Shown here: in pieces, positions 3,698 to 60,290 of the stretch | Position numbering within the stretch: the first letter of the stretch is position 1 | How the letters are laid out: the number at the start of each line of letters is the position of its first letter | Origin: a virus | Virus record (IMG/VR): IMGVR_UViG_3300037504_000923 | Coordinates: 1-63,036 of that record | Direction: 5' to 3' (one strand) | Length of the DNA stretch: 63,036 nt | Notes under the pieces: model-generated | Told to the model about the DNA's origin: nothing | Database searches by the model: none | The model's input: the letters and a program-made list of their open reading frames with translations, nothing else | Position numbers and translations under genes: made by a program

Positions 3698-4740
3698 TAA
3701 ATAAAATACATATAAAAAACATTCAATCACATGAGGATTCCCGGCTTGAATTCTCAAAAGGACTGAATGTCATAGTAGGAGAATCAGATGCTGGTAAATC
3801 TGCTATAATAAGAGCTTTGCGTTGGATCATAGAAAACCGCCCAATGGGAGATTCAATACGTTCTTCGTGGGGTGGAGAGAGTAAAGCAGTCATTCAATTA
3901 ACGGAAGGTAATGAAGTAGGCAGAGTTAAGTCAAAAAAGAAAAATGAATATTATCTAAACAATCAAATATTCAAAGCAATTAAATCCGATGTACCTCCTG
4001 AAATCGCAGATGCCCTCCGATTAAATTACACCAATATTAAATACCAAATTGATCCTCATTTCCTTATATCGAAAACGCCCGGAGAAGTGGCAAAACACTT
4101 CAACCGAGTAGCTCAACTAAATCAAATTGATTTAGGATATAAAAATATAGATGGTTGGATTAGTGGGCATAAACAGGATTTAAGCAAAATTGAAAAAGAC
4201 ATAGAAGAAATAAACCAAGACCTTATTCAGTACAAAGACCTTGATAAAATAGAAACGCAGGTTGAAGTATTGGAAGAGATTGAAAAAAGTAAGAAAAACG
4301 ATAAGGAAAGTAAAAAACAATTGCGAGAATTGAAAAGTCAGATTGAGGAAACGGATGGAAAGATTAATGCGTTTGATGAGTTGTTGGATTTTGAAAAACG
4401 TATTGATCCCATTCTCAATCTCTATGACAAAAGGAAAGAAGTATTGACGAAGGCCAGTGAATTACAAGAATTAACAACTGAAATATCAAAAGTACAATTG
4501 GATATTGATTATGAACAATCCCTTCTTTCTCATGAAGAGCAGATTGACTCGTTAATTAGCATAATAGGGAAGAGGGATGAGAAGAATGAGGAGTTAGAAG
4601 AATTGAGTGAAATTATGGAAAACTTAAATAAAACGATTTTAAGGCTCGAACGTAAAGAAAACAAATTAATAGACCTTGAAGAAGAATTTCATGAAAATAT
4701 GAAAGGAAAATGTCCTTTATGCGGTTCAAAAATAGATTAA
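3694..4740 (+). CDS. Rad50/SbcC-like ATPase, N-terminal half (Walker A, coiled coil, terminal CxxC)
   Basis: IHIKNIQSHEDSRLEFSKGLNVIVGESDAGKSAIIRAL is an SMC/Rad50-type N-terminus. A long heptad-rich region follows, and the product ends in KCPLCGSKID. Confidence 0.7.
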   Translation: MINKIHIKNIQSHEDSRLEFSKGLNVIVGESDAGKSAIIRALRWIIENRPMGDSIRSSWGGESKAVIQLTEGNEVGRVKSKKKNEYYLNNQIFKAIKSDVPPEIADALRLNYTNIKYQIDPHFLISKTPGEVAKHFNRVAQLNQIDLGYKNIDGWISGHKQDLSKIEKDIEEINQDLIQYKDLDKIETQVEVLEEIEKSKKNDKESKKQLRELKSQIEETDGKINAFDELLDFEKRIDPILNLYDKRKEVLTKASELQELTTEISKVQLDIDYEQSLLSHEEQIDSLISIIGKRDEKNEELEELSEIMENLNKTILRLERKENKLIDLEEEFHENMKGKCPLCGSKID

Positions 4741-4742
4741 TC

Positions 4743-6116
4743 ATGAAAGAATTACCAAATATAGTAAAAAATGAAATAAGTGAAGCAGAATCTGCTTCTT
4801 ATATTGAACGTCTTAGAAATGGAGGTTCAATTACAATTGAAATGAAATGGAAGAAACCTATAAATTTAAACATTATGGAAACAAAAAATGAAACATTATT
4901 AGCCGGATTAAAGGAGTTACTTTCAATAATGATAGGAGAACCTCGGTATTCTGGTCTTTGCACAAATGCTAAGAATATTAAAGATGTAAATCAATATCAT
5001 GAAGTACAAAAATTTTTAGATAAAAATTTGCCAGAAAGAAAATACCTAAATAACATGGGACAACTTGCTTTTTCATGGGATATGAAGGATATACAATCCC
5101 GTATTAATTGGTTGGAAAAACAGATTATGAAAATAGAGGGAAAAGGAAAAAATGATAAAGAATTTAAATTACTCACTCTACTTCCCAAGTTAAGACGACT
5201 TGTTGAAGCTGCAAACCATGATGATTATGCCGGACCTCGTGGGATTTGTGAATTCGTAAATATGGGGAATTTTGACGATTCTGAACAATTAGAATTATTA
5301 GAAGATTTCCTTAAATTCAATCTACCTCCTTTTCGTATGAAAGGCAGTACTTATTGTTGGCCTCCTGATGACAAACAATCTCGTTTGGATTGGTTAGATG
5401 AGCAAATTAGAAAATTACAATCCGTCACTACCACTGACCCGAAGAAAGGGGAAAAGACAGAATATATCCACACTCGTATGACGGAACAACAAAAGGATTC
5501 AATATATCGTCTAAAGGATTCAATAGATGAGGAGATTAGAAGAAAGACAGAAAGAGATTTTCATAAACATATAACTGATCCTTTTACTCATCTAACGATG
5601 CCTCCTCGTCTAACATGTTCTCCTGAACTTGGGCCGAGACTCTTTTGGATGGATGAACAAATTAAAAAAATAGTAGAGGAAATAAGAGCAAGACAAAATG
5701 AAGGTTCTACAAACGTCCGGGTCATATTGGATGGATCACTCCAAGATAATTCCATGATTATAAGAGCAGGGAAGAAGGCATTTCAGGCATTAGAAAAAAC
5801 AGATTCAGATGTTAAAGGATTTGATGCTAATGACCATAGATTACCAAAGGTATTGGAATTATTGATCACTCTGCGTTCATTTACAGGAGATTTCTATCAA
5901 TACCACGATAATGGACTTTGCACTCTTATCTCTGTACTTGTTAATGAAGAAGCTAAATTGAATAATGAAGAAGCAAGGTTACTTAATCGATATCTAAAAT
6001 ATAATCTACCTCCTAGAGATATTAACAAGTATTATTGTTGGAATCCTGAGGATAAGCAATCTCGTGTTGAATGGTTGGGTGAGCAAATAGCTAAAGTTAA
6101 AGAATTGATAAAATGA
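4743..6116 (+). CDS. Hypothetical protein with four internal repeats
   Basis: Repeats: FSWDMKDIQSRINWLEKQI, YCWPPDDKQSRLDWLDEQI, PELGPRLFWMDEQI and YCWNPEDKQSRVEWLGEQI. The start is taken at the ATG at 4743, just after the upstream stop. Confidence 0.6.
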   Translation: MKELPNIVKNEISEAESASYIERLRNGGSITIEMKWKKPINLNIMETKNETLLAGLKELLSIMIGEPRYSGLCTNAKNIKDVNQYHEVQKFLDKNLPERKYLNNMGQLAFSWDMKDIQSRINWLEKQIMKIEGKGKNDKEFKLLTLLPKLRRLVEAANHDDYAGPRGICEFVNMGNFDDSEQLELLEDFLKFNLPPFRMKGSTYCWPPDDKQSRLDWLDEQIRKLQSVTTTDPKKGEKTEYIHTRMTEQQKDSIYRLKDSIDEEIRRKTERDFHKHITDPFTHLTMPPRLTCSPELGPRLFWMDEQIKKIVEEIRARQNEGSTNVRVILDGSLQDNSMIIRAGKKAFQALEKTDSDVKGFDANDHRLPKVLELLITLRSFTGDFYQYHDNGLCTLISVLVNEEAKLNNEEARLLNRYLKYNLPPRDINKYYCWNPEDKQSRVEWLGEQIAKVKELIK

Positions 6117-49669: not shown

Positions 49670-50023
49670 ATGTATGAAATCAGAAAACAATTCCATTTTA
49701 GTGCGTCTCACGTACTGTATGAATTACCAAAAGGTCACCCGTGCGGGAGATTGCATGGTCACAACTACATCGTAGAATTAATACTACGATCAGAGAACTT
49801 AAACAGTGAAGGATTTGTAGTTGACTACGGTCAATTGAAACAGATTAAACAATGGATTGATGAAACTTTCGACCATCAACACCTAAACGACAAAATGAAC
49901 GTGAATCCAACGGCTGAAAACATTGCGAAATTAATCTATGACAGATGGGTACATTATTATCCACTGCATGGTGTGAAAGTCAAAGAAACTGAAAAAACGG
50001 AGGCAACTTATTATGGAAGTTAA
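49670..50023 (+). CDS. queD: 6-carboxy-5,6,7,8-tetrahydropterin synthase
   Basis: FHFSASHVL...GHPCGRLHGHNY...FDHQHLN are PTPS/QueD signatures. Confidence 0.9.
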   Translation: MYEIRKQFHFSASHVLYELPKGHPCGRLHGHNYIVELILRSENLNSEGFVVDYGQLKQIKQWIDETFDHQHLNDKMNVNPTAENIAKLIYDRWVHYYPLHGVKVKETEKTEATYYGS

Positions 50024-50780
50024 AACGATTATTGAAGCCCGGCCGGATTTCAAAAAAGACATCCCACCAGGTACGAATGATTTCCTTGAGGTAGCAGAGT
50101 TTTTCTGTGACACAATTCAAGGAGAAGGAGTAAATACAGGCGTTCCGGCTACGTTTCTCAGGATGCAACATTGTACTCAAAACTGTGTTTGGTGTGATAC
50201 TCAGGAAGTATGGAGGTATGGAAATCCTTATACTTTTGATGAGTTATTTGAATTGATTGAAAAATATGGAGTAGCAGGAAAATTGATGGAGGGTCAGCAT
50301 CTGGTATTAACAGGAGGCTCTCCATTGAAACAACAATCCCGACTTATCAATTTTCTGCATAAATTCATGGAGGTATTCGATTTCAAACCGCATATAGAAA
50401 TTGAAAACGAATGTACCTTGATGCCTTCAAAAGACATGATTGAATTAGTCGATACGTGGAATAATTCTCCAAAACTTGAGAATTCAGGCAATTTGAGAAT
50501 ATTGCGCTATCAACCTGAAATCCTCAGAAAATTATCTTCCCTGACAAACTCATGGTTTAAATTTGTTATCAGCAGTGAAAAAGAGTGGAAAGAGATTGAG
50601 GATGATTTCTTAGAACCAGAACTCATAGCACCAGAGCAAATAATACTCATGCCAGTCGGAGCAGACCGTAAAGAATTAGAACAAAACAGGGAGTCCGTAG
50701 TAGATATGGCTATTCAAAATAACGTCCGTTATACCACTCGCGAACATATTGTACTTTGGGATAAGAAAACCGGAGTGTAA
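50013..50780 (+). CDS. queE: 7-carboxy-7-deazaguanine synthase (radical SAM)
   Basis: FLRMQHCTQNCVWCDT is a Cx3CxxC-type radical SAM cluster in QueE context, plus LVLTGGSPL. Confidence 0.85.
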   Translation: MEVKTIIEARPDFKKDIPPGTNDFLEVAEFFCDTIQGEGVNTGVPATFLRMQHCTQNCVWCDTQEVWRYGNPYTFDELFELIEKYGVAGKLMEGQHLVLTGGSPLKQQSRLINFLHKFMEVFDFKPHIEIENECTLMPSKDMIELVDTWNNSPKLENSGNLRILRYQPEILRKLSSLTNSWFKFVISSEKEWKEIEDDFLEPELIAPEQIILMPVGADRKELEQNRESVVDMAIQNNVRYTTREHIVLWDKKTGV

Positions 50781-50827: not shown

Positions 50828-51700
50828 ATGAAAACAAAAGATTTAAAGGAAGCAGCAAAGGAACTTAATGAAGTTCTACAACCTGAAGAAGGTGATGAGA
50901 TAAAAGTAAACCAATCTCATGAAAAAATCCTTGACAAAGTGAAAGAAGCAATGTATGTGCTTGAAAGTGCTGATTCTGAAGAATTATCAGAATCAACCAT
51001 TGAAGTACTTCATGAAATCGCCGTTGAAAATTACGAGGAATTTGAAGAAGCGGAAAATGATGCCGAGGAACCTTGTGTTGATGTCTTCAAAAACATCGGT
51101 ATTTTAACTGATAAAGATTTTGAAGAAGAAGAGCCTGAGGAGCCTGAGGAAGAAGAAGAGCCTGAGGAAGAAGAAGAGCCTGAGGAAGAAGAAGAGCCTG
51201 AGGAAGAAGAAGATATTGATTTGGCTTATATCGTTGATGGGATGACAAAACTCAAGGACCTCAAAGGACTTGTACAGGAAAGGGATGAATTTGAAGAGCT
51301 ACGAGATGAACTCGGCAAATACCGAAAGACTGCAGACTTAAAAGCAGTCATGATGGAAATGGTTAAAGAAGAACCCGAACCCGAATCTGAGAAAAAGGAA
51401 AAACCTGCTAAAGAAGCAAAAGGTAAATCATCCACAAAGAAGACTGGGAAGAAGGAAGCTCCTAAAAAAGCGAAAGGAAAATCAGGAAAAGGAGTTATTG
51501 CTACAATCACAGAATGCATTGAAGATTCTGGTAAAAAGGGAATTTCAAAAGAACAGATTTTTGAAAAACTGAAAAAAGAATTCCCTGATAGAAATGAAGA
51601 TTCCATGAAAAATACTATTGGAGTTCAAGTTCCCGGACGCATCAATAAAGAAAAATTTGAAATTGAAAAACTTGAAAACGGAAATTACAGAAAAAAATGA
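50828..51700 (+). CDS. Highly acidic repeat protein with conserved basic C-terminal domain
   Basis: EEPEEPEEEEEPEEEEEPEEEEEPEEEED encoded by an 18-bp tandem repeat. C-terminus: KGVIATITECIEDSGKKGISKEQIFEKLKKEFPDRNEDSMKNTIGVQVPGRINKEKFEIEKLENGNYRKK. Confidence 0.65.
   Translation: MKTKDLKEAAKELNEVLQPEEGDEIKVNQSHEKILDKVKEAMYVLESADSEELSESTIEVLHEIAVENYEEFEEAENDAEEPCVDVFKNIGILTDKDFEEEEPEEPEEEEEPEEEEEPEEEEEPEEEEDIDLAYIVDGMTKLKDLKGLVQERDEFEELRDELGKYRKTADLKAVMMEMVKEEPEPESEKKEKPAKEAKGKSSTKKTGKKEAPKKAKGKSGKGVIATITECIEDSGKKGISKEQIFEKLKKEFPDRNEDSMKNTIGVQVPGRINKEKFEIEKLENGNYRKK
51122..51213 (+). repeat. 18-bp tandem repeat gaagaagaagagcctgag (about 4-5 copies)
   Basis: Read directly from the sequence; encodes the (E)nPE repeats. 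Confidence 0.85.
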
Positions 51701-52410
51701 AAAAAGTAGTTTTAGGATTATCAGGAGGAATGGATTCTGCGACCTTGCTCGGTTATTTTATCGGGCAAGGTTTTGACAGCATTCATTGCTGTTCGTATAT
51801 GTATGGATCAAAACATAATGATTATGAGCTTGCAGCGGCTGGGAAGATTATTCAGTATTACAATGATTTTACTGCTGATCAACTAAATAAATCAATAGAT
51901 CGAATTACTACTGTCCATCATCACATTTTTGATATTAGAAATATATTTACAAATATACAATCAAATTTGATGCAATCAGGAGGAGAAATACCCGAAGGGC
52001 ATTACGAAGAAAAAAACATGAAAAAAACAGTAGTACCGGGTAGGAATTTAATTTTTGCTTCCATCATGGCATCTGTCGCTGAATCAGAAGGAGCAGAAAA
52101 AATAGCTCTTGGAGTACATTCAGGAGATCATCATATTTATCCAGATTGTCGTCCTGCTTTCATTGATAGATTAACGGAAACTATTCATCAAAGTACAGAT
52201 GGAAAGGTAGAAGTAATAGCTCCTTTTACAGATTTTGATAAAACAGAAATCTTAAAGTTAGGATATTCATTAAATCCACAGGTTCCCTATCACTTGACAC
52301 GAACCTGCTACAAAAACCAACCAATTTCCTGTGGTAAATGTGGCAGTTGTAATGAAAGATTAGAAGCATTTCAGATGATTAACAAAAAAGATCCTATCCA
52401 ATATGAATGA
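51697..52410 (+). CDS. queC: 7-cyano-7-deazaguanine (preQ0) synthase
   Basis: LGLSGGMDSATLL PP-loop, VVPGRN, and C-terminal zinc cysteines CYKNQPISCGKCGSC. Confidence 0.9.
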   Translation: MKKVVLGLSGGMDSATLLGYFIGQGFDSIHCCSYMYGSKHNDYELAAAGKIIQYYNDFTADQLNKSIDRITTVHHHIFDIRNIFTNIQSNLMQSGGEIPEGHYEEKNMKKTVVPGRNLIFASIMASVAESEGAEKIALGVHSGDHHIYPDCRPAFIDRLTETIHQSTDGKVEVIAPFTDFDKTEILKLGYSLNPQVPYHLTRTCYKNQPISCGKCGSCNERLEAFQMINKKDPIQYE

Positions 52411-52987
52411 AAATGATAAAGAATTGTTAATACAATCCATTTTAAAGGAAATAGGTGAAAATCCTGAACGCCCGGGTATAGTTGATACTCCACAGAGAGT
52501 AGTAAAAATGTGGAAAGAAATATTTCGAGGATATGACCCGTCTAATAAACCAAAAGTTTCTGTATTTAAAAACGGAACAGATGGTTTGGTTTATGATCAA
52601 ATGATTATAGATACCGGAGATTTTTATTCTCATTGTGAACATCACATGGTTCCTTTCTTTGGACAATATTGGTTTGGTTATATTCCTGATCCAAACGGAA
52701 ATATAATTGGTCTTTCTAAAGTAGCCCGATTAGTTGATTTTCATGCTGCTCGTTTACAAATACAAGAGCGTTTGGTACATGATATTGTAGAGGATATATG
52801 GAATATTTTATCAAAAGAAGCTGTTAGACCTATTGGTATGGGTTTAATAATGAAAGGGGAACATCTTTGTAAAACTATGAGAGGGGTAAAAAAGAAAGGA
52901 GAAATGACTACCACTAAACTAAAAGGAGCATTCTTTGATAACCAATCTGTAAAGAATGAATTTCTGCAAAAAGCAAATGGAAAATGA
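52403..52987 (+). CDS. folE: GTP cyclohydrolase I
   Basis: GIVDTPQRVVKMW, FYSHCEHHMVPFFG and ARLQIQERL are type I GCH signatures. Confidence 0.9.
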   Translation: MNENDKELLIQSILKEIGENPERPGIVDTPQRVVKMWKEIFRGYDPSNKPKVSVFKNGTDGLVYDQMIIDTGDFYSHCEHHMVPFFGQYWFGYIPDPNGNIIGLSKVARLVDFHAARLQIQERLVHDIVEDIWNILSKEAVRPIGMGLIMKGEHLCKTMRGVKKKGEMTTTKLKGAFFDNQSVKNEFLQKANGK

Positions 52988-52993
52988 AAAGGG

Positions 52994-53173
52994 ATGAAGA
53001 TATTTTTAGCAGGAAATACTCCTGATAGAGAGAAAGAGGAGAAAGTATTGATTAAAAAGAAACTCTCTCAAAGACGATTAATTTCTTTTTATTTTCTATT
53101 TGATAAAGCGATTTTCAAAATGTTTAAACTTTGGAAAAATGAAAATTTACTTCGCCGGGACTCCCGGGATTGA
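52994..53173 (+). CDS. Mini-ORF family member 1 (59 aa)
   Basis: Hand translation MKIFLAGNTPDREKEEKVLIKKKLSQRRLISFYF... Shares the M(K/R)(I/V)(Y/F)(L/F)AG...RE(R/K)E...RL(L/I/F/W)S(F/Y) pattern. Confidence 0.35.
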   Translation: MKIFLAGNTPDREKEEKVLIKKKLSQRRLISFYFLFDKAIFKMFKLWKNENLLRRDSRD

Positions 53174-53333
53174 AGAGAGAGAGAGAAACTGGCAGTCTGT
53201 TATTAAGACACGATTGCTTTCATTTTGGGATATAAAAAACAATCAATTTTCTATTCCTTTTGCTTTTAATTTAATCAAAAAAAATTATGAAAGTATATTT
53301 GGCAGGAGTACCCGGAGGAGCAACAACTGGTGA
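53139..53333 (+). CDS. Mini-ORF family member 2 (64 aa)
   Basis: MKIYFAGTPGIEERERNWQSVIKTRLLSFWD..., from an internal Met of the listed ORF 53100..53333. Confidence 0.35.
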   Translation: MKIYFAGTPGIEERERNWQSVIKTRLLSFWDIKNNQFSIPFAFNLIKKNYESIFGRSTRRSNNW

Positions 53334-53406
53334 TTGTAAGAGAGAGAGAATTAAACCGATTTTGGTATTTACGCCTTTGGTCTTATTATCATTTAAAAGA
53401 AAGTAA
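53287..53406 (+). CDS. Mini-ORF family member 3 (39 aa in frame; family alignment continues in the dpdA frame)
   Basis: MKVYLAGVPGGATTGDCKRER... in one frame. RERELNRFWYLRLWSYYHLKE is in the +1 frame, which runs without a stop into dpdA. Confidence 0.3.
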   Translation: MKVYLAGVPGGATTGDCKRERIKPILVFTPLVLLSFKRK

Positions 53407-53413
53407 CGGAATT

Positions 53414-54313
53414 ATGAAAAAAGGTAAAAAAGTAGAATTGTTTTTGGATTCTGGAGCATTTTCCGCTTGGTCACAAGATAAAGAAATACAAATCCAAGAT
53501 TATATTCAATTCATAAAAGATAATGAAAATGTAATTGATGTATATGCAAATTTAGATGTCATTGGAGATGCAAAAGGAACTTATAATAACCAAAGAATAA
53601 TGGAAAAGGCTGGATTGAATCCACTACCTGTTTTTCATTATGGAGAAGATATAAAATGGTTGAAGAAATATTTATCTTATCCTTATATTACACTTGGAGG
53701 AATGGTTCCTATTTCAAATAATGCTTTAATTGCTTGGTTAGATAATTTATTTGAGAATTATTTGACGGATGATAAAGGAATTCCGATTTGCAAAATACAT
53801 GGGTTTGGTCTGACTTCATTAAAACTTATGCTTCGTTATCCATGGTATTCAGTAGATTCTACATCATGGGTTGTGACCGGTAGAATGGGATCCATCTATG
53901 TTCCTCGTAGAAAAGGAGGGGAGTGGGTTTATAATGAAAATAGTTGGAAGATAGCTGTTTCCAACCGGTCACCTGACAAAAAAGAAGCAGGTAAACATAT
54001 AGATACGATGTCTCCTGCTGAGAAACAGGTTTTTCTTGACTATATCCATGAAAAAGGATACAAGCTGGGAAAATCAGAATATAAAGAAGTCAAACCGGGA
54101 TATAAATTGAAAGATAATGAAAGATGGTTGGATAAAAAACCAAAAAACAAAACTACTAATCGCAAAGTAGAAGTGATTGTTGAGGATGGAGTTTCTAATC
54201 GTTATCAACTTAGGGATGAAATGAATATTATTTATTTTCTTGATCTCGAAAAGAGAATGCCTAAGTGGCCGTGGCCTTTTAAGACAAAAACCAAACAGAA
54301 AGGACTTTTTTAA
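53414..54313 (+). CDS. dpdA: DpdA-like DNA (7-deazaguanine) transglycosylase, TGT superfamily
   Basis: FLDSGAFS (compare TGT DSGGFQ), ANLDVIGD, LGGMVP, IHGFGLTS and SVDSTSW, adjacent to folE-queDEC. Confidence 0.7.
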   Translation: MKKGKKVELFLDSGAFSAWSQDKEIQIQDYIQFIKDNENVIDVYANLDVIGDAKGTYNNQRIMEKAGLNPLPVFHYGEDIKWLKKYLSYPYITLGGMVPISNNALIAWLDNLFENYLTDDKGIPICKIHGFGLTSLKLMLRYPWYSVDSTSWVVTGRMGSIYVPRRKGGEWVYNENSWKIAVSNRSPDKKEAGKHIDTMSPAEKQVFLDYIHEKGYKLGKSEYKEVKPGYKLKDNERWLDKKPKNKTTNRKVEVIVEDGVSNRYQLRDEMNIIYFLDLEKRMPKWPWPFKTKTKQKGLF

Positions 54314-54885
54314 TGAAATGGAATGATGATTTTGTTAAAGCCCGTAGAAAAAGAATAGAAGACGCCTCTATAATTAATAATTATTTACAAAGTAATTATT
54401 ATTTGCGTCCAATACATTCAACCCACGAAATAATGTCTATACAAGAAAAAAAGAATAACAATAACATTAAAAATAGATTATTGACTGGGTCCGATGGGAA
54501 AATGGGACTATTTTATACTATCGTTAAAAATGATAAAGAACCGGGTAATTTGATAATTTTTGGATATAAAGAAGGAGGATCATTTTATATTAAAAATAGT
54601 GGTGATTATAAAGATGATTTTAATGGATTTTTAAAACTATTAGCAAATCATAATACCCATGTGATTATTGTAGATTCAAATAAACGATCTCATAAATTTT
54701 CTGAACTAATACCAATCGAAGTATTTATACGTCATTGGAATCCTTCTATTAGTACAAGTAAAAGCAATAAAAATAGAATAAATTTTCACGGTTCTATGAA
54801 AAAAATCACTTGTAAATTTCCAATAGATGAAAATATATATGGTGATTCATTGATAAAACAATTACAAAATTTAGCCGAATTATGA
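54313..54885 (+). CDS. Hypothetical protein
   Basis: 190-aa AT-rich ORF between dpdA and mini-ORF 4. Confidence 0.5.
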   Translation: MKWNDDFVKARRKRIEDASIINNYLQSNYYLRPIHSTHEIMSIQEKKNNNNIKNRLLTGSDGKMGLFYTIVKNDKEPGNLIIFGYKEGGSFYIKNSGDYKDDFNGFLKLLANHNTHVIIVDSNKRSHKFSELIPIEVFIRHWNPSISTSKSNKNRINFHGSMKKITCKFPIDENIYGDSLIKQLQNLAEL

Positions 54886-55067
54886 GAATATACTTTGCTA
54901 CATGGTTATTTGACAAGACACTCGGGGAAAGTCTGACTAAAAAACAGGCCTTTTCACGTCTTTTAAGTTTTCATTTTATAAGAGAACAAGGTCTGCAGAA
55001 TAATCATCTACGAAAATACTGCAGAACTGGTAAATTTAATCCTTCACTTTTAAAGGTAAAGAAATGA
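54882..55067 (+). CDS. Mini-ORF family member 4 (61 aa)
   Basis: MRIYFATWLFDKTLGESLTKKQAFSRLLSFHF... Confidence 0.35.
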   Translation: MRIYFATWLFDKTLGESLTKKQAFSRLLSFHFIREQGLQNNHLRKYCRTGKFNPSLLKVKK

Positions 55068-55288
55068 AAATTTATTTAGCAGGAGGAATGACTATAATAA
55101 ATGTTAAAGGCCGAGAGAGAGAGATCAGTCAAAAACACATGATTTGGAGAAGATTATTTTCTTATCATTATAAAGAATTAATATATAAATCCGAAATATT
55201 ACAACTAAGTTATGAAAGTAAACAAAAACGAATTACAAACGGCACTGGAAAAAGTACGTCCGGGATTAAGTACAAAGGAAATACTTGA
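55064..55288 (+). CDS. Mini-ORF family member 5 (74 aa; 3' end overlaps the clamp gene)
   Basis: MKIYLAGGMTIINVKGREREISQKHMIWRRLFSYHY... Confidence 0.35.
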   Translation: MKIYLAGGMTIINVKGREREISQKHMIWRRLFSYHYKELIYKSEILQLSYESKQKRITNGTGKSTSGIKYKGNT

Positions 55289-56231
55289 CCAATCCACTTC
55301 ATTTGCATTTATTGGTGGTAAGGTCATTACATTTAATGACAAAATAAGTATTTCACACCCTGTCGAGGGACTTGACCTCGAAGGAGCAATCAAAGCGGAG
55401 GAACTGTATAAAATCCTCTCTAAACTTAAATCCGAGGAAATAAAACTTCGTATATCAGATGGGAAAATACTGATGAGAAGTGGTAAAACAAAGGTAGAAT
55501 TAGTATTAGAAAATAAAATACTTCTACCATTGAATGAAATATCGGAAACAGAGGATTGGGAGGAGTTACCTGAAGATTTCACTGATGCTTTGACTTTCAC
55601 GATGGGATGTTGCACGCGGGATATGTCGAAACCAAAACTCACCTGCGTACACATCAACGCCGATGGATTTATGGAGGGTTCAGATGGTTTCAGAATCGGT
55701 CAATATATGTTTGACGATGGTTTTGATTTTGATACTTTCTTAATTCAAGCCGATTCAGTGAGAGAGGTAGTGAAAATAAAACCTACCGAAATCTCATTAT
55801 CTGAAGGATGGGTGCATTTTCGTAATGAAGAAGGAACCATTATATCAGCCCGTACATTTGCTGATGAAGAATACCCTGATACCACAAATGTATTAGAGGT
55901 AAGGGGGGAAGATATGAAACTACCGGATGATATAATTGATATACTGGACAGGGCTTCCGTATTTGCAAAGAGAGATCATATATTGGATGAATCAGTATCT
56001 GTAATATTTGAAGAAAATAAGGTGACTTTAAAAGCGAAGTCAGAAACTGGCTCACAATTTGAGGAATGGGCTAAAACGGAAAATAAATCAGAAGGAAACT
56101 TTCAAATCACTCCTTATCTATTACGGGATATACTTTCCCGTACATTAGATTTCACCATGTCTCCACAGATGCTGAAATTTGAAGCGAGTTCATGGATTTA
56201 TGTAACTGCATTAAAGGAAGATAATGAATAA
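55212..56231 (+). CDS. DNA polymerase sliding clamp (DnaN/beta-like)
   Basis: 339 aa. NELQTALEKVRPGLSTKEILDQSTSFAFIGGKVITFNDKISI follows the beta-clamp N-terminal pattern, next to the polymerase genes. Confidence 0.6.
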   Translation: MKVNKNELQTALEKVRPGLSTKEILDQSTSFAFIGGKVITFNDKISISHPVEGLDLEGAIKAEELYKILSKLKSEEIKLRISDGKILMRSGKTKVELVLENKILLPLNEISETEDWEELPEDFTDALTFTMGCCTRDMSKPKLTCVHINADGFMEGSDGFRIGQYMFDDGFDFDTFLIQADSVREVVKIKPTEISLSEGWVHFRNEEGTIISARTFADEEYPDTTNVLEVRGEDMKLPDDIIDILDRASVFAKRDHILDESVSVIFEENKVTLKAKSETGSQFEEWAKTENKSEGNFQITPYLLRDILSRTLDFTMSPQMLKFEASSWIYVTALKEDNE

Positions 56232-57441
56232 AGGATTTTTTTCACAAAAAGAAACCCAGTCGACAAAGATAAAAGGAAAAAGCCTTTCTTGTGCCTCGTG
56301 TGGTCTTTTTCGCAATGCCCTGACTCCAAAAATGAAACCGTATGGTAACTTCTCAAAACAAATATTGAACATTGGAGAGGCTCCGGGAGAAAGAGAAGAT
56401 GAAAAAGGAAGACAATGGCAGGGCAAAGTAGGTAGGCTTTTGAAAAAAACATATCGTCGATTGGAAGTAGATTTATTTGAAGATTGTCTGAATGTGAATT
56501 CCGTCAACTGCCGTCCTCCTAAAAATCGAACTCCTAAAAACCATGAAATTGACTGTTGTCGTGAAGTCATTGTTGACAATACCATCTCAGAAAATCAACC
56601 AAAATTAATCATTGCACTGGGAAATGCCGCTTTGTATAGTTTAATTGGACATAGGTGGAAGAAAGATTTTGGAGGTATCACGAAATGGAGGGGGTGGATA
56701 ATACCTGATAAGGAACATGATGCTTGGATTGCTCCTGTATATCATCCCTCTTATATAGAACGCATGGATGATAAAGCATGTAATACGATTTGGGAACAGG
56801 ATTTGAAAAGAGCTTTTGAAACGGTTAATTCATATTTTCCAAAATTTGACAAAAAGAAAATACATTATATAGAAGACCTTTCAATCCTTAATGACATACA
56901 AACCGATTTAGTAGCAATTGATTATGAAACTACCGGCTTGAAACCTTATGGTAAAGGACATAAAATCGTATGTGCTTCCGTTGCTGTGAGTGACTCGGAA
57001 GTATATGCGTTTATGATGCCTGAGTCAAAAAAGCAAAGACAGCCCTTTATTGATCTACTGAAAAATCCTAAAATCTCAAAAATGGCTCATAATATGAAGT
57101 TCGAAGAGATATGGAGTGATGTGATATTGGGTCAACCAGTTATTAATTGGGCTTTTGATTCGATGCTTGCGGCTCATATATTGGACAATCGCCCAGGTAT
57201 AACCGGATTGAAATTTCAAACGTATGTTCAATTTGGAGTTATTGATTATGATTCGGATATTAATAAATATTTGAAAGGTACGAGGGAAGGAGCAAACGCT
57301 TTTAATCGGGTAGAGGAATTGGCAGAAACTGAGAGAGGCAGAAAAAAGTTATTGACATATTGTGCTTTAGATAGTCTCTATGAATACCGTCTTGCAATGA
57401 GACAAATGCAGCAGATGAATTTTGACTTTTTACCATTTTAG
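56224..57441 (+). CDS. Family 4 UDG-like domain fused to a PolA-type 3'-5' exonuclease domain
   Basis: UDG4-like CASCGL...NIGEAPGEREDEKGRQWQGKVGRLL. Exo I VAIDYETTGL, Exo II HNMKFE, Exo III YCALDSLYEY. Confidence 0.7.
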   Translation: MNKGFFSQKETQSTKIKGKSLSCASCGLFRNALTPKMKPYGNFSKQILNIGEAPGEREDEKGRQWQGKVGRLLKKTYRRLEVDLFEDCLNVNSVNCRPPKNRTPKNHEIDCCREVIVDNTISENQPKLIIALGNAALYSLIGHRWKKDFGGITKWRGWIIPDKEHDAWIAPVYHPSYIERMDDKACNTIWEQDLKRAFETVNSYFPKFDKKKIHYIEDLSILNDIQTDLVAIDYETTGLKPYGKGHKIVCASVAVSDSEVYAFMMPESKKQRQPFIDLLKNPKISKMAHNMKFEEIWSDVILGQPVINWAFDSMLAAHILDNRPGITGLKFQTYVQFGVIDYDSDINKYLKGTREGANAFNRVEELAETERGRKKLLTYCALDSLYEYRLAMRQMQQMNFDFLPF

Positions 57442-57448
57442 TTTAGTT

Positions 57449-58849
57449 ATGAAAATAGATATAAATCCACAGACACAACAGGCCTATCAATTATTCCATG
57501 ATGGTATATTGGCTCTTTCACGTGCTGAAAAGCAAGGTATAAGAGTCGATATGCGTTATTTGAAAAGAAAGCAAAAGCAGCTTACAAATCGGATTGAAAA
57601 GAATGATGAAAAATTCAAAAAGACTGATTTGTATAAGGCTTGGAAAAAGAAATATGGAGCAAATATAAATCTCAATTCTGATCCTCAACTCGGTGAGGTA
57701 TTGTATAATGTATTGAATTATACACCTTACAAAACAACAAAAACAGGACGGGGAAAAGTCGATAAAGAGGCGCTGGAATACTTGGAGATTGAAGCACTGG
57801 ATATACTACTGGAAACTCGGAGACTAAAGAAAATCAGAGATACCTATTTGGCACAACTCGTCAGAGAACAATCAGGCCGGGTCGTACATCCTTTCTTCAA
57901 TCTACATACCGTTTCGACTTTTCGATCTTCCTCAAATGCCCCTAACTTTCAAAACATTCCCAAGCGCGAAAAAGATGCCCGTAAAATGATTCGATCAGCA
58001 CTGTATCCACGTGAAGGCCATCAATTAATGGCAATTGACTTTTCAAAACTTGAAGTCTCCATAGCCGCCTGTTATCATAAAGACCCTACCATGTTGAATT
58101 ATTTGAAAAGTGATTCATCGGACATGCATGGTGATATGACAGAGCAGATATTTATTATGGATGATTTTGACACGTCAATCCCGGAGCATTCTTACCTACG
58201 TTCAGCAATAAAGAATTCATTTGTATTTCCTCAATTCTACGGCGATTATTATAAGAACAATGCCTTGAGTATTGCTAAATGGTTGAAATTACCAAACAAA
58301 GGACGTTGGAAACCCGGCAAAGGCGTAAATATAAATAAGGATCAGACGATTACGGATCACTTACATGAGAAAGGAATAAAGACGTTTGATCATTTTGTGG
58401 ATCATTTAAAAGACATTGAGGATGATTTTTGGAATAACAGATTTCCAGCATATAAGAAATGGAAAGACTTTTGGTATTCTTTGTATCAAAAATATGGTTA
58501 TGTTGATATGCTGACAAAGTTCCGGGTTAAAGGCTATATGAAAAAGAACGAGGTTATAAATTACCCGGTACAAGGATCGGCATTTCATTGTTTGTTATGG
58601 TCTTTCATTGAATTAGACAAGGTGATGAGATTAGAGGATTGGAAAACTCGTTTGATTGGACAAATACATGATGAGGTGGTATTGGACGTACATCCTGATG
58701 AAAAGGATCATGTATTACAGATAGCAAAGAAAATTACGACAGTAGATTTACCAAAAGCATGGGATTGGATTATTGTACCACTTGACATTGATGCTGAAAT
58801 CGCTCCAGTCGACAGGCCTTGGTCGGAGATGGTAGAAATTGAAATTTAA
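57449..58849 (+). CDS. Family A DNA polymerase, polymerase domain
   Basis: RSSSNAPNFQNIPKR, motif A LMAIDFSKLEVSIAA, motif B RSAIKNSFVFPQFYG, motif C QIHDEVVLD. Start taken at the ATG at 57449. Confidence 0.85.
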   Translation: MKIDINPQTQQAYQLFHDGILALSRAEKQGIRVDMRYLKRKQKQLTNRIEKNDEKFKKTDLYKAWKKKYGANINLNSDPQLGEVLYNVLNYTPYKTTKTGRGKVDKEALEYLEIEALDILLETRRLKKIRDTYLAQLVREQSGRVVHPFFNLHTVSTFRSSSNAPNFQNIPKREKDARKMIRSALYPREGHQLMAIDFSKLEVSIAACYHKDPTMLNYLKSDSSDMHGDMTEQIFIMDDFDTSIPEHSYLRSAIKNSFVFPQFYGDYYKNNALSIAKWLKLPNKGRWKPGKGVNINKDQTITDHLHEKGIKTFDHFVDHLKDIEDDFWNNRFPAYKKWKDFWYSLYQKYGYVDMLTKFRVKGYMKKNEVINYPVQGSAFHCLLWSFIELDKVMRLEDWKTRLIGQIHDEVVLDVHPDEKDHVLQIAKKITTVDLPKAWDWIIVPLDIDAEIAPVDRPWSEMVEIEI

Positions 58850-59354: not shown

Positions 59355-60290
59355 ATGAGTCTATACAAAAAATATCGTCCACAAACATTTGATGAAGTAC
59401 TCGGTAATACCCAATCTATTGCCTCATTAAAAGGCATTGTTGAGGATTATCATAATGAAAAAGAGATTCCCCATTCCTTTCTTTTCACAGGTCCTACAGG
59501 TTGTGGAAAAACTACCCTTGGTAGAATTCTTGCCCGTGAACTCGGTAGTGAGGGAAATGATTATAGGGAGGTTGATTCGGCACAATTTCGTGGAATTGAT
59601 ACGGTCAGAGAAATAAGAAATCAAATGTACTACCGTCCTCAACAAAGTCCTTTACGAGTATTCCTATTAGATGAGTGCCACATGCTCGGTCGAGGAGGAA
59701 ATTCTTCCTCAAATGAAGCTCAGAATGCCTTATTGAAAGCATTAGAGGATACCCCTTCACATGTCATATTCATTCTTTGTACCACTGATCCTCAAAAACT
59801 CCTTGCAACTATAAAAGGTAGATGTAGTCACTTTGAGGTATCACCTCTGAATGACAAAACAATGTCAAGGCTGCTGAAGAAAGTCACTCGAAAAGAGGGG
59901 GAGAATATTGATAAGGAATTGGTAGAACAAATAACGATGGATTCATTAGGACATCCTCGTAATGCACTACAAATATTGGAACAGACTTTGAGGGTGGATG
60001 AAGATCAGAGATTGGAAATTGCTCGAAAAACAGCCGAGCAGAAACATCAATCCATTGAATTATGTAGGGCTTTGATTGATGGCTCACCTTGGAAAAAGGT
60101 AACAAAAATTATTAAAGGTCTTTCTGAGGAAAATCCTGAATCTATCCGTCATCATGTTCTCAGTTACTGTAATTCGATAATTCTTGGAGGTGTGAATAAT
60201 AAAGCCGCGGAGATTATGGAAGAATTTTCTGAACCATTCTATAATCCTTACATGTTGTCACTTGCTTGTTATGCAATAATAAACGGATAA
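59355..60290 (+). CDS. Clamp loader AAA+ ATPase (DnaX/RFC-like)
   Basis: KYRPQTFDEVLGN, Walker A GPTGCGKTT, Walker B FLLDECHML, and SRC-like GRCSHF. Confidence 0.85.
   Translation: MSLYKKYRPQTFDEVLGNTQSIASLKGIVEDYHNEKEIPHSFLFTGPTGCGKTTLGRILARELGSEGNDYREVDSAQFRGIDTVREIRNQMYYRPQQSPLRVFLLDECHMLGRGGNSSSNEAQNALLKALEDTPSHVIFILCTTDPQKLLATIKGRCSHFEVSPLNDKTMSRLLKKVTRKEGENIDKELVEQITMDSLGHPRNALQILEQTLRVDEDQRLEIARKTAEQKHQSIELCRALIDGSPWKKVTKIIKGLSEENPESIRHHVLSYCNSIILGGVNNKAAEIMEEFSEPFYNPYMLSLACYAIING

Follow-up and report, generated by a model that had tools for sequence, protein, structure and literature searches.

DpdA is a DNA guanine/7-deazaguanine transglycosylase. In a viral DNA segment of 63,036 nucleotides (IMG/VR record IMGVR_UViG_3300037504_000923, positions 1 to 63,036; this whole stretch is hereafter called the window), the gene dpdA is accompanied by five short open reading frames (ORFs), all between positions 52994 and 55288, whose products share an N-terminal module. 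What is this repeated module, and what could several copies of it do beside one enzyme? A preliminary description of the window had offered three answers, namely, a genuine small-protein family, decayed duplications of a gene 5′ end, and translated leaders. We find that the module is the N-terminal quarter of the DpdA barrel and that four of the five ORFs represent a real family of small proteins; taken together as one claim, these two statements are held with high confidence. The new family is the solid result, and the split modular enzyme discussed below is put forward as a hypothesis.

The module and its position in the DpdA barrel

The elements of the locus are as follows (subfamilies A to D are defined below).

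52994..53173, + strand: copy 1, free-standing gene of a DpdA-type N-terminal module, 59 aa, subfamily A
53139..53333, + strand: copy 2, gene of a free module, 64 aa, subfamily A, with an (AG)6 tract at 53174-53186
53287..53406, + strand: copy 3, true 5′ end of dpdA encoding strand 1 (MKVYLAGVPGGATTGDCKRER), out of frame behind the AG tract and not an independent gene
53339..53349, + strand: (AG)5 tract where a +1 frame break cuts strand 1 off from the remainder of dpdA
53330..54313, + strand: dpdA ORF as it stands, with a remnant of helix 1 and strand 2 at 53336-53431 and core strands 3-8 at 53429-54310
54313..54885, + strand: 190-aa ORF between dpdA and copy 4
54882..55067, + strand: copy 4, gene of a free module, 61 aa, subfamily B, MKIYLATWL.D..G.SLTK.....RLLSYFF....Y..TG
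55064..55288, + strand: copy 5, gene of a free module, 74 aa, subfamily C, MKIYLAGGMTVMNVKGRERELS..F..W.RLFSYHY..LI.KSEIL

The coordinates and translations of the five ORFs agree with those of the preliminary description, as do the overlaps between copies 1 and 2 (35 nt), copies 2 and 3 (47 nt), and copy 5 and the sliding clamp gene (77 nt); ATGA stop–start overlaps are found at 54882 and 55064. In the six-frame translation of the entire window, the start motif M[KR][IV][YF][LF]A[GT] occurs at five sites only (52994, 53139, 53287, 54882, and 55064), and the second motif, R.L.S[FY][YWH], follows in frame behind four of them. The two-motif module that had been described for all five copies holds for copies 1, 2, 4, and 5 and fails for copy 3, whose second motif (RERELNRFWYLRLWSYYHL) lies outside the 53287 ORF, in the +1 frame, within the dpdA ORF (...VIVRERELNRFWYLRLWSYYHLKESNGIMKKGKKVELFLDSGAF). 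A profile of nine modules, comprising copies 1, 2, 4, and 5, the frame-repaired copy 3, and four modules of the related locus L001, scores copies 1, 2, 4, and 5, all four being seeds of this profile, at E from 4e-22 to 9e-21 among all six-frame segments. The window paralogues are 54-62% identical at the DNA level, compared with approximately 50% for shuffled sequence, and hence the likeness of the five copies is a protein-level one between old paralogues. A DNA-level repeat or recombination cassette was ruled out by these identities and by synonymous saturation in orthologues. Stop-codon reassignment, considered as four of the five ORFs end in TGA, was dropped, given that the ORFs lie in different frames and have relatives with ordinary ORFs.

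In terms of fold, the module makes up the first quarter of the DpdA/TGT TIM (triosephosphate isomerase) barrel, that is, strand 1, a loop with helix 1, strand 2, and helix 2. Hidden Markov models (HMMs) built from the free-standing modules alone (hereafter, minis) matched the DpdA N-terminus only at E of about 0.006, so that profile–profile comparison was needed to establish the homology. HHalign comparisons of the mini subfamilies with 66 DpdA N-termini gave 97.4% for A (E 1e-11), 94.6% for B (E 7e-8), 97.3% for C (E 2e-11), and 60% for D (E 9e-5).

Structure models, made for single chains only, place the module within the fold. The AlphaFold2 model of an intact DpdA, P0124 (mean predicted local distance difference test score, pLDDT, 86), has strands at residues 2-5 and 30-33, helices at 18-22 and 34-39, and a third strand at 50-55, formed by ELFLD and leading into DSG; further strands at 84-88, 116-118, 136-140, 172-176, and 191-193 bring the number to eight, alternating with helices. 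By this model, the module contributes the first two strands of the barrel, and the catalytic ELFLDSG, as strand 3, comes behind it. The model of copy 4 (pLDDT 72) has strands at 5-6 and 26-27 and helices at 12-20, 30-36, and 40-49; a Foldseek search with the mini model gave no meaningful match. In the crystal structure of a bacterial DpdA, the catalytic Asp95 lies two residues ahead of Gly97, where the strand-3/helix-3 insertion starts (PMC10164549).

The start of the minis had previously been likened to ELFLDSG as the first strand of DpdA. This comparison is misplaced by two strands, since the P0124 model, the intact and cultured-phage DpdAs, and the bacterial structure all put the DSG strand third. 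The other proposed resemblance, to nucleoside 2-deoxyribosyltransferase/DNPH1-type proteins, received no support, as no Pfam family matched the five window peptides or 118 family members at E <= 1, and the family members are mostly 45-80 aa long versus approximately 130-160 aa for a full Rossmann-like DNPH1-type domain. The remark that the peptides are too short for either fold is true of a single chain, and it overlooks the possible supply of a quarter-barrel to a separate core.

Copy 3 and the dpdA gene

The ORF at 53330-54313 is identified as a phage DpdA by its profile match, by its putative catalytic Asp motifs, and by the adjacent queD, queE, queC, and folE genes. The phage profile phrog_887 (queuine tRNA-ribosyltransferase) matches it at E 1.4e-56, and the match to the core HMM has E 5e-168. 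In tblastn, 242 phage records carrying the queuine tRNA-ribosyltransferase annotation were matched, and the identity to cultured-phage DpdA is 41-50%. With NF041059, the model for bacterial DpdA, the match (E 0.003) stayed far below the cut-off, the Pfam TGT family did not match the window dpdA, and a PDB sequence search with the intact DpdA returned noise only. The window enzyme is a DpdA1-like phage transglycosylase, i.e., one of a known kind. The family alignment has invariant residues at D55-S56-G57, D91, H174-G175, and D193 (motifs DSG, NLD, HGF, and VDST); since all of them sit in the core, every candidate catalytic residue is a core residue.

Comparison with relatives shows that copy 3 is the 5′ end of dpdA itself rather than a separate gene. 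In L001, an IMG/VR contig that is the closest relative found (DpdA 71% identical to that of the window), dpdA is one uninterrupted ORF of 346 aa, MKVYLAGAPGGGSTGLCRREKELNRLWKLRLWSYYHLILVNGIMPNENKKRVELFLDSGAY... In L001 and proteins P0121-P0130, the pattern MK[VI]YLAG.PGGG..G.C.RE.ELN..W.LRLWSYYHL...VELFLDSGA is contained in a single ORF, and dozens of database homologues are alike; it is this reading from module to core in one ORF that identifies copy 3. The HMM of the DpdA module matches this part of the window twice, with its positions 1-20 at 53287-53349 and its positions 17-48 at 53336-53431, and the two matches are not in the same frame; the change takes place within tgt aag aga gag aga att (53339-53349). 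With one extra AG unit, or with a −2 slip of ribosome or polymerase on this tract of period two, the product would be GDCKRERELNRFWY, the family consensus. Thus, the 5′ end of dpdA is set apart by an (AG)n tract one unit below the in-frame length, and because the frame changes in this tract, the window dpdA is left without strand 1 in frame. Consistently, phrog_887 aligns to the intact DpdA of the L001 type from residue 1, and to the window ORF from residue 16. The dpdA ORF opens at 53291 and has a GTG at 53330; its working start is likely ATG 53414 (MKKGKKVELFLDSGAF), just ahead of ELFLDSG.

A family of small proteins

Copies 1, 2, 4, and 5 belong to a genuine small-protein family, as the preliminary description had suggested for all five ORFs; this follows from hundreds of homologues of like size, from proportions of nonsynonymous differences (pN) far below those of synonymous ones (pS), from synteny, and from the ATGA coupling. 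A family profile built from 20 minis of the window and its IMG/VR relatives retrieved 214 proteins at E <= 0.01 in a word-indexed search, all of them 42-113 aa long, unnamed, and without Pfam domains. Homologues elsewhere, which had been left to an HMM search, proved numerous: an exhaustive HMMER search of 1.84 billion representatives yielded 469 at E <= 1e-3, of which 130 also pass E <= 1e-10, and almost all of the 469 are 46-110 aa long.

The minis fall into subfamilies A (copies 1 and 2), B (copy 4), C (copy 5), and D, which has no member in the window; A, B, and C are anciently diverged module subfamilies of separate, translated small genes. Copy 1 has orthologues in P0057 (69% identical) and L018 (400-546, dN/dS 0.22), and copy 2, in L001 (3412), L017 (725), L019 (4545), and L021 (4853). 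Subfamily B is the most widespread (74 of the best 120 matches), and orthologues of copy 4 in at least ten diverged loci show pN of 0.25-0.50 versus pS of 0.55-1.2. Copy 5 (HMM match E 9e-32), whose tail overlaps the clamp gene, has orthologues in L001 (5092), L002 (4333), L019 (6383), L021 (6856), and L007 (4021), with dN/dS of 0.08-0.38 where computable. Over orthologue pairs, pN is 0.13-0.45 versus pS of 0.5-1.0, the latter largely saturated, and dN/dS is 0.08-0.49 where computable, which shows purifying selection on the minis. M1 and S29 are invariant, I3, A6, R26, and L27 are nearly so, and the stretch between them varies; the conserved positions form the two strand motifs common to DpdA.

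Gene order is conserved as well. In five out of five look-ups on long contigs seeded with a mini, the minis lie downstream of folE and an ORF of approximately 310-342 aa and upstream of the gene at the clamp position; in four cases, this ORF was confirmed to encode the DpdA core. This synteny is kept in phages with family A polymerases and in those with PolIII-alpha-type polymerases.

The same data bear on the suggestion that the minis are translated leaders or coupling ORFs, in which the act of translation would regulate dpdA and the clamp gene. The ATGA junctions and the overlaps with the starts of both genes are what such a role would leave behind. Leaders would not, however, account for strong amino acid conservation over the whole module at saturated synonymous sites, nor for a module that is homologous to a part of an enzyme and occurs fused inside DpdA, and we consider this explanation extremely improbable; the leader idea of the preliminary description is left unsupported on the same grounds.

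The minis had no match in Pfam, PHROGs, or NCBIfam. In the DpdA literature searched, Pfam, and PHROGs, we found no description of free genes for the N-terminal quarter-barrel or of their multiplication beside dpdA, and the natural split between module and core and the repeat tracts that break modules were likewise not found described there. The family of 45-110-aa proteins is thus previously undescribed. With its 469 representative clusters, which lie outside Pfam and PHROGs, it merits a name and a model whatever the mechanism.

Free, fused, and split modules

Several classes of DpdA homologues can be told apart. Among them are proteins of approximately 340-355 aa, in which a highly conserved core bears a module of one type or another, and proteins of approximately 300 aa, starting with ...KVELFLDSGAF. 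Subfamily A is found in both the free and the fused state. Copy 2 is 44% identical (E 1e-9) to residues 1-48 of P0143, a 354-aa DpdA with the module fused to the core. For the L001 orthologue of copy 2, which is encoded as a free mini ahead of dpdA, the identity reaches 66% (E 5e-22) over residues 1-50 of P0143. Modules of subfamily A are fused to the core in P0140, P0142, P0143, P0163, P0180, and P0197. Thus, subfamily A is demonstrably interchangeable between the two states. P0375 (L064, 239-1303) is a 354-aa ORF in which three tandem modules, each with a starting Met and not assigned to a subfamily, precede the DpdA core (NIFIDSGGFSAW...), and two minis are fused in tandem in P0241, P0242, P0357, and P0362.

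The junction of module and core is also a place of separation. In L021 and L066, a module ORF of subfamily A abuts a core-only dpdA in another frame. A core-only dpdA with a mini array behind it characterizes a whole clade from digesters and activated sludge, the array reaching six or seven minis on contigs that extend far enough. In one lineage of the approximately 300-aa class, represented by L019 (4693-5906) and L020 (1987-3200), an Endonuclease_7 (PF02945) ORF lies exactly at the junction of a 49-aa module ORF and a 301-aa core ORF. No endonuclease ORF is found in the window at 52994-55288, so a split by a homing endonuclease, as in L019 and L020, is not seen there.

Several further observations concern these loci. 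The L019 contig has inteins in the helicase and family A polymerase genes. P0326 (218 aa) is a subfamily B mini fused in frame to an HNH-type homing endonuclease; as this case adds to the others, mobile endonucleases frequent the mini region. L015 carries two adjacent DpdA paralogues, one of 276 aa with a compact fused module (4035-4865, MKIYYAAGAMNLPDDFVKIGVLISYYGL...) and one of 321 aa that is core-only and followed by minis (4886-5851). In L009, a distant DpdA without an N-terminal module (3989-5035) ends with ...TTVYYGISTNSHINMMRTVKPQPDILVSYAYMTEKL. A circularly permuted module at this C-terminus (...VYYGIS...ILVSYAY) is visually suggestive and was rejected, as the profile tests were unsupportive (E of about 0.02-0.08).

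AG tracts and frame breaks

Perfect (AG)n repeats underlie the RERE motif of helix 1. The 63-kb window contains three tracts of (AG)>=5, none on the other strand, and all three lie in modules, namely, in copy 2, at the dpdA break, and in copy 5 ((GA)6 at 55113-55124). This is so even though GAA outnumbers GAG approximately 3:1 in the long ORFs of the window. Across some sixty related loci, in-frame modules mostly have (AG)6, and broken ones mostly have (AG)5 or (AG)7; comparison of the two kinds shows that the number of AG units decides the reading frame within the module coding sequence. Half of the ten catalogued distinct frame breaks fall on an AG tract, and further AG-tract breaks are present in L017 (copy 1), L011, and L065. 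Because of such breaks, many of these dpdA genes are annotated by gene callers as N-terminally truncated or "core-only."

The +1 break of the window dpdA recurs, at the DNA level, at the homologous tract in L017/L018 and L065, and the N-terminally truncated proteins P0155, P0177, and P0221 may carry the same break. Each of the broken sequences has an intact or core-only form as its nearest relative and none is closest to another broken one, so that the break must have arisen repeatedly, and inheritance of a single break was ruled out. L017 and L018 are near-identical contigs of one and the same phage, assembled from two Joint Genome Institute (JGI) samples (3300031227 and 3300022874); over 1,814 nt, they differ by one single-nucleotide polymorphism, one AG unit, and one A. 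The AG unit is in copy 1 (L017 614, L018 433), where its loss breaks the L017 orthologue, and the A is in an A5/A6 run of mini B (L017 1966, L018 1787); both L017 indels break a mini. These findings agree with AG tracts that are slippage-prone and possibly phase-variable; the differences may also represent fixed mutations, recoding during expression, or assembly error. As read from the sequence, a −2 slip on AGAGAGA in dpdA would re-pair perfectly and restore the consensus CKRERELN. In several contigs of the sludge clade, the mini of subfamily D is broken at one internal point, namely, in L006 (5309-5451) and at the equivalent positions in L036, L037, L038, and L061, where profile positions 13-25 are missing and the frame is changed; it is intact in L007, L040, L045, L050, and L054.

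Breaks of this kind, together with the homing-endonuclease genes of the region (Endonuclease_7 in L019, GIY-YIG in L021, the HNH fusion P0326) and the variation of mini copy number and order among phages, could suggest that the minis are decaying, functionless leftovers, i.e., recombination or homing-endonuclease scars of a dpdA 5′ end repeatedly exchanged and duplicated, kept open by chance for a time; approximately ten distinct frame breaks are known, and mini D is broken in several contigs. On the other hand, the subfamilies have stayed open across phages with DpdA cores about 50% identical and with differing polymerase types, pN is well under the saturated pS, start–stop coupling is precise, 469 representative clusters have a like small size, and the window paralogues are old. 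This makes decay improbable. The idea of decayed duplications of a gene 5′ end, offered in the preliminary description, is therefore correct as to origin, in view of the homology to the DpdA N-terminus and of copy 3 being the dpdA 5′ end itself, and wrong as to simple decayed scars.

A proposed split, modular DpdA

The simplest account, which as a whole we consider about as likely as not, is that module and core are separable parts of one enzyme. The core (strands 3-8) would hold the chemistry and all catalytic residues, having only six strands, and each small protein would be a detachable N-terminal subunit that docks on the core and, acting in trans, brings the barrel to its full eight strands. 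A common socket would receive the residues conserved in the strands, IYLAG and RLLSYY; such a socket predicts just what is found, namely, that the most conserved positions of the minis are those of the two strands shared with DpdA. In the window, the module of dpdA itself would be off, with four free modules at hand, so that the core would depend on the latter. In the course of evolution, module and core would have been repeatedly fused, unfused, duplicated, and reordered. That free minis complete the DpdA barrel in trans is a possibility which we would put a little short of probable.

The proposal can be taken further. In the bacterial DpdA structure, the strand1/helix1 insertion forms part of the DNA-binding surface, and the strand2/helix2 insertion flanks the active site, with a possible role in sequence recognition (PMC10164549). 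By analogy, the variable strand1/helix1 and strand2/helix2 loops of the minis would lie on the DNA-binding face, and DpdA isoforms with differing DNA-context preference could arise from modules bearing such loops. The (AG)6 tracts in the helix-1 region (RERE) would gain or lose units and thereby switch individual modules on or off. That the modules set DNA-context specificity and are phase-switched seems doubtful to us. The joint reading, in which a split DpdA with subunits that decide in which guanine contexts 7-deazaguanine is placed, together with (AG)n switching, gives phage populations heterogeneous in DNA-modification pattern, a phage counterpart of bacterial phasevarions, is slightly more doubtful again.

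Several observations weigh against this proposal. No fusion with a DpdA core was seen for subfamilies B and C (copies 4 and 5), whose link to it is one of homology and position only. L001 and L003-L005 keep free minis beside an intact fused DpdA, for which simple complementation would not need them. The distant core-only DpdAs of L009, L010, L053, and L056 have no detectable mini within 2-4 kb. The approximately ten distinct frame breaks among 159 module instances (some contigs being counted twice) are equally compatible with relaxed constraint. In the P0124 model, the N-terminal module has pLDDT of 69-79 versus more than 90 for the core, and Foldseek with the DpdA model gives generic TIM barrels only (E of about 1e-3). 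Finally, the specificity idea is extrapolated from the structure of a distant bacterial DpdA.

The first two of these observations, along with the tandem fusions P0241, P0242, P0357, and P0362, would fit independent small proteins that descend from the DpdA N-terminus and act as decoys or dominant-negative regulators of DpdA, or inhibit host TGT or Dpd defence enzymes by mimicry; purifying selection, which indicates some function, agrees with this as well. Yet the top conserved positions (M1 and S29, then I3, A6, R26, and L27) are those of the barrel strands common to DpdA, subfamily A is demonstrably interchangeable between the free and fused states, and nothing ties the minis to host proteins. 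We regard such independent proteins as unlikely, though by no means negligible. One may also imagine an assembly of minis alone, in which four quarter-barrels, or pairs in tandem, form a separate barrel-like hetero-oligomer without the DpdA core, for there are four free modules in the window, two-module fusions occur naturally, and the copy 4 model has the strand–helix–strand–helix order. However, a locus may have anything from 1 to 7 minis, the modules lack catalytic residues, and the idea is favoured by arithmetic alone, which makes it very improbable.

DpdA-mediated replacement with 7-deazaguanine is a major phage route to evade restriction. Interchangeable DNA-face modules on a catalytic core would, if true, directly answer why DpdAs differ in the motifs and in the fractions of G that they modify, and could provide an engineering handle for site-selective DNA modification. 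A natural, widespread quarter-TIM-barrel gene family, found free, fused, triplicated, and cut by an endonuclease, would be notable for protein evolution, being, if the proposal is true, a living example of fragment-assembly scenarios that have so far been studied mainly in the laboratory.

Genomic neighbourhood

The locus consists of a replication module and the preQ0 pathway:

49670-50023, + strand: queD, preQ0 synthesis (Pfam PTPS, 1.8e-31)
50013-50780, + strand: queE, preQ0 synthesis (Pfam Fer4_12/Radical_SAM)
51697-52410, + strand: queC, preQ0 synthesis (Pfam QueC, 7e-53)
52403-52987, + strand: folE, preQ0 synthesis (Pfam GTP_cyclohydroI, 2e-51)
55212..56231, + strand: sliding clamp gene (phrog_947, DNA polymerase processivity factor, E 1.4e-33)
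starts at 56224 and 57422: two-ORF family A polymerase
start at 59355: clamp loader

The clamp gene is the downstream limit of the mini array also in L001, L011, L014, L015, L019, L021, and L063. The polymerase of the window is encoded by two overlapping ORFs, 56224-57441, which matches PHROG DNA-polymerase families, and 57422-58849, which has the family A polymerase domain; the two-ORF layout is likewise found on related contigs, and counterparts of the first ORF in related loci have uracil-DNA glycosylase (UDG) and 3′-5′ exonuclease domains. Between queE and queC, the window encodes a highly acidic 290-aa protein (50828-51700) with (EEEP)n-like repeats and a basic C-terminal part, and a similar acidic, repeat-rich protein occupies the corresponding position in L001 (848-1867). 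The folE product, 194 aa in the window, has an N-terminal phosphoribosyltransferase-like fusion in L001 (2558-3415) and L014 (3539-4498), where it is 285-319 aa long.

The 190-aa ORF between dpdA and copy 4 has homologues at the matching position in L021, L065, and L011 (E 1e-9 to 1e-22). It is absent from L001 and L019, both of which keep minis B and C, and no database relative was found; this rules it out as a general partner of copies 4 and 5, and it probably stands outside the module system. A nucleotide search of the locus against GenBank phages gave one unannotated 400-nt match only, so there is no close cultured relative.

Comparison with known systems

Among the closest known systems is the DpdA of cultured phages (DpdA1-type; Burkholderia phage BcepGomr gp31, Microcystis phage Me-ZS1, and E. 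coli and Mycobacterium phages), which is 41-50% identical to the window core. The gene order is shared, with queC/queD/folE followed by dpdA and then by the clamp gene. The cultured-phage proteins have the same N-terminal module, M.[LI][FY][IL]A[GA]...ERE...L.SYHY before FLDSGAFSAF; BcepGomr gp31 and the Me-ZS1 DpdA start with MNLFIAG...EREK...KLESYHYIH...KVFLDSGAF. In contrast to these phages, each having a single fused module and no free copies nearby, the window has four free modules plus one, diversified into subfamilies, with the copy belonging to dpdA itself out of frame.

A second parallel is provided by the "genes in pieces" of T4-like phages, such as nrdA of Aeromonas phage Aeh1, which is split by the homing endonuclease gene mobE. 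The dpdA genes of L019 and L020 are alike in encoding one enzyme as two polypeptides around an Endonuclease_7-family ORF. The window differs in that the break is a repeat-tract frameshift with no endonuclease at the junction, and nrdA has no counterpart of the extra modules.

In bacterial phasevarions, mod or hsdS genes are switched by simple repeats, for instance, CT/AG repeats in H. pylori. The present case differs in its short tracts (5-7 units), in belonging to a phage, and in its enzyme, a transglycosylase rather than a methyltransferase, and the evidence comes from assembled sequences. Common to both are dinucleotide repeats within the coding sequence of a DNA-modification component and a repeat length that correlates with the frame state; tract length may also differ between near-identical genomes, as it does in the L017 and L018 assemblies.

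Finally, fragment complementation and modular evolution are known for TIM barrels, e.g., the half-barrels of HisF and the 6+2 fragments of the tryptophan synthase alpha subunit. The split DpdA proposed here would likewise consist of a six-strand and a two-strand piece, the mini being predicted to have the order strand–helix–strand–helix. Whereas the known cases are mostly laboratory dissections or inferred ancient events, the two-strand piece would here be the product of a natural, separately encoded, and multiplied gene family.

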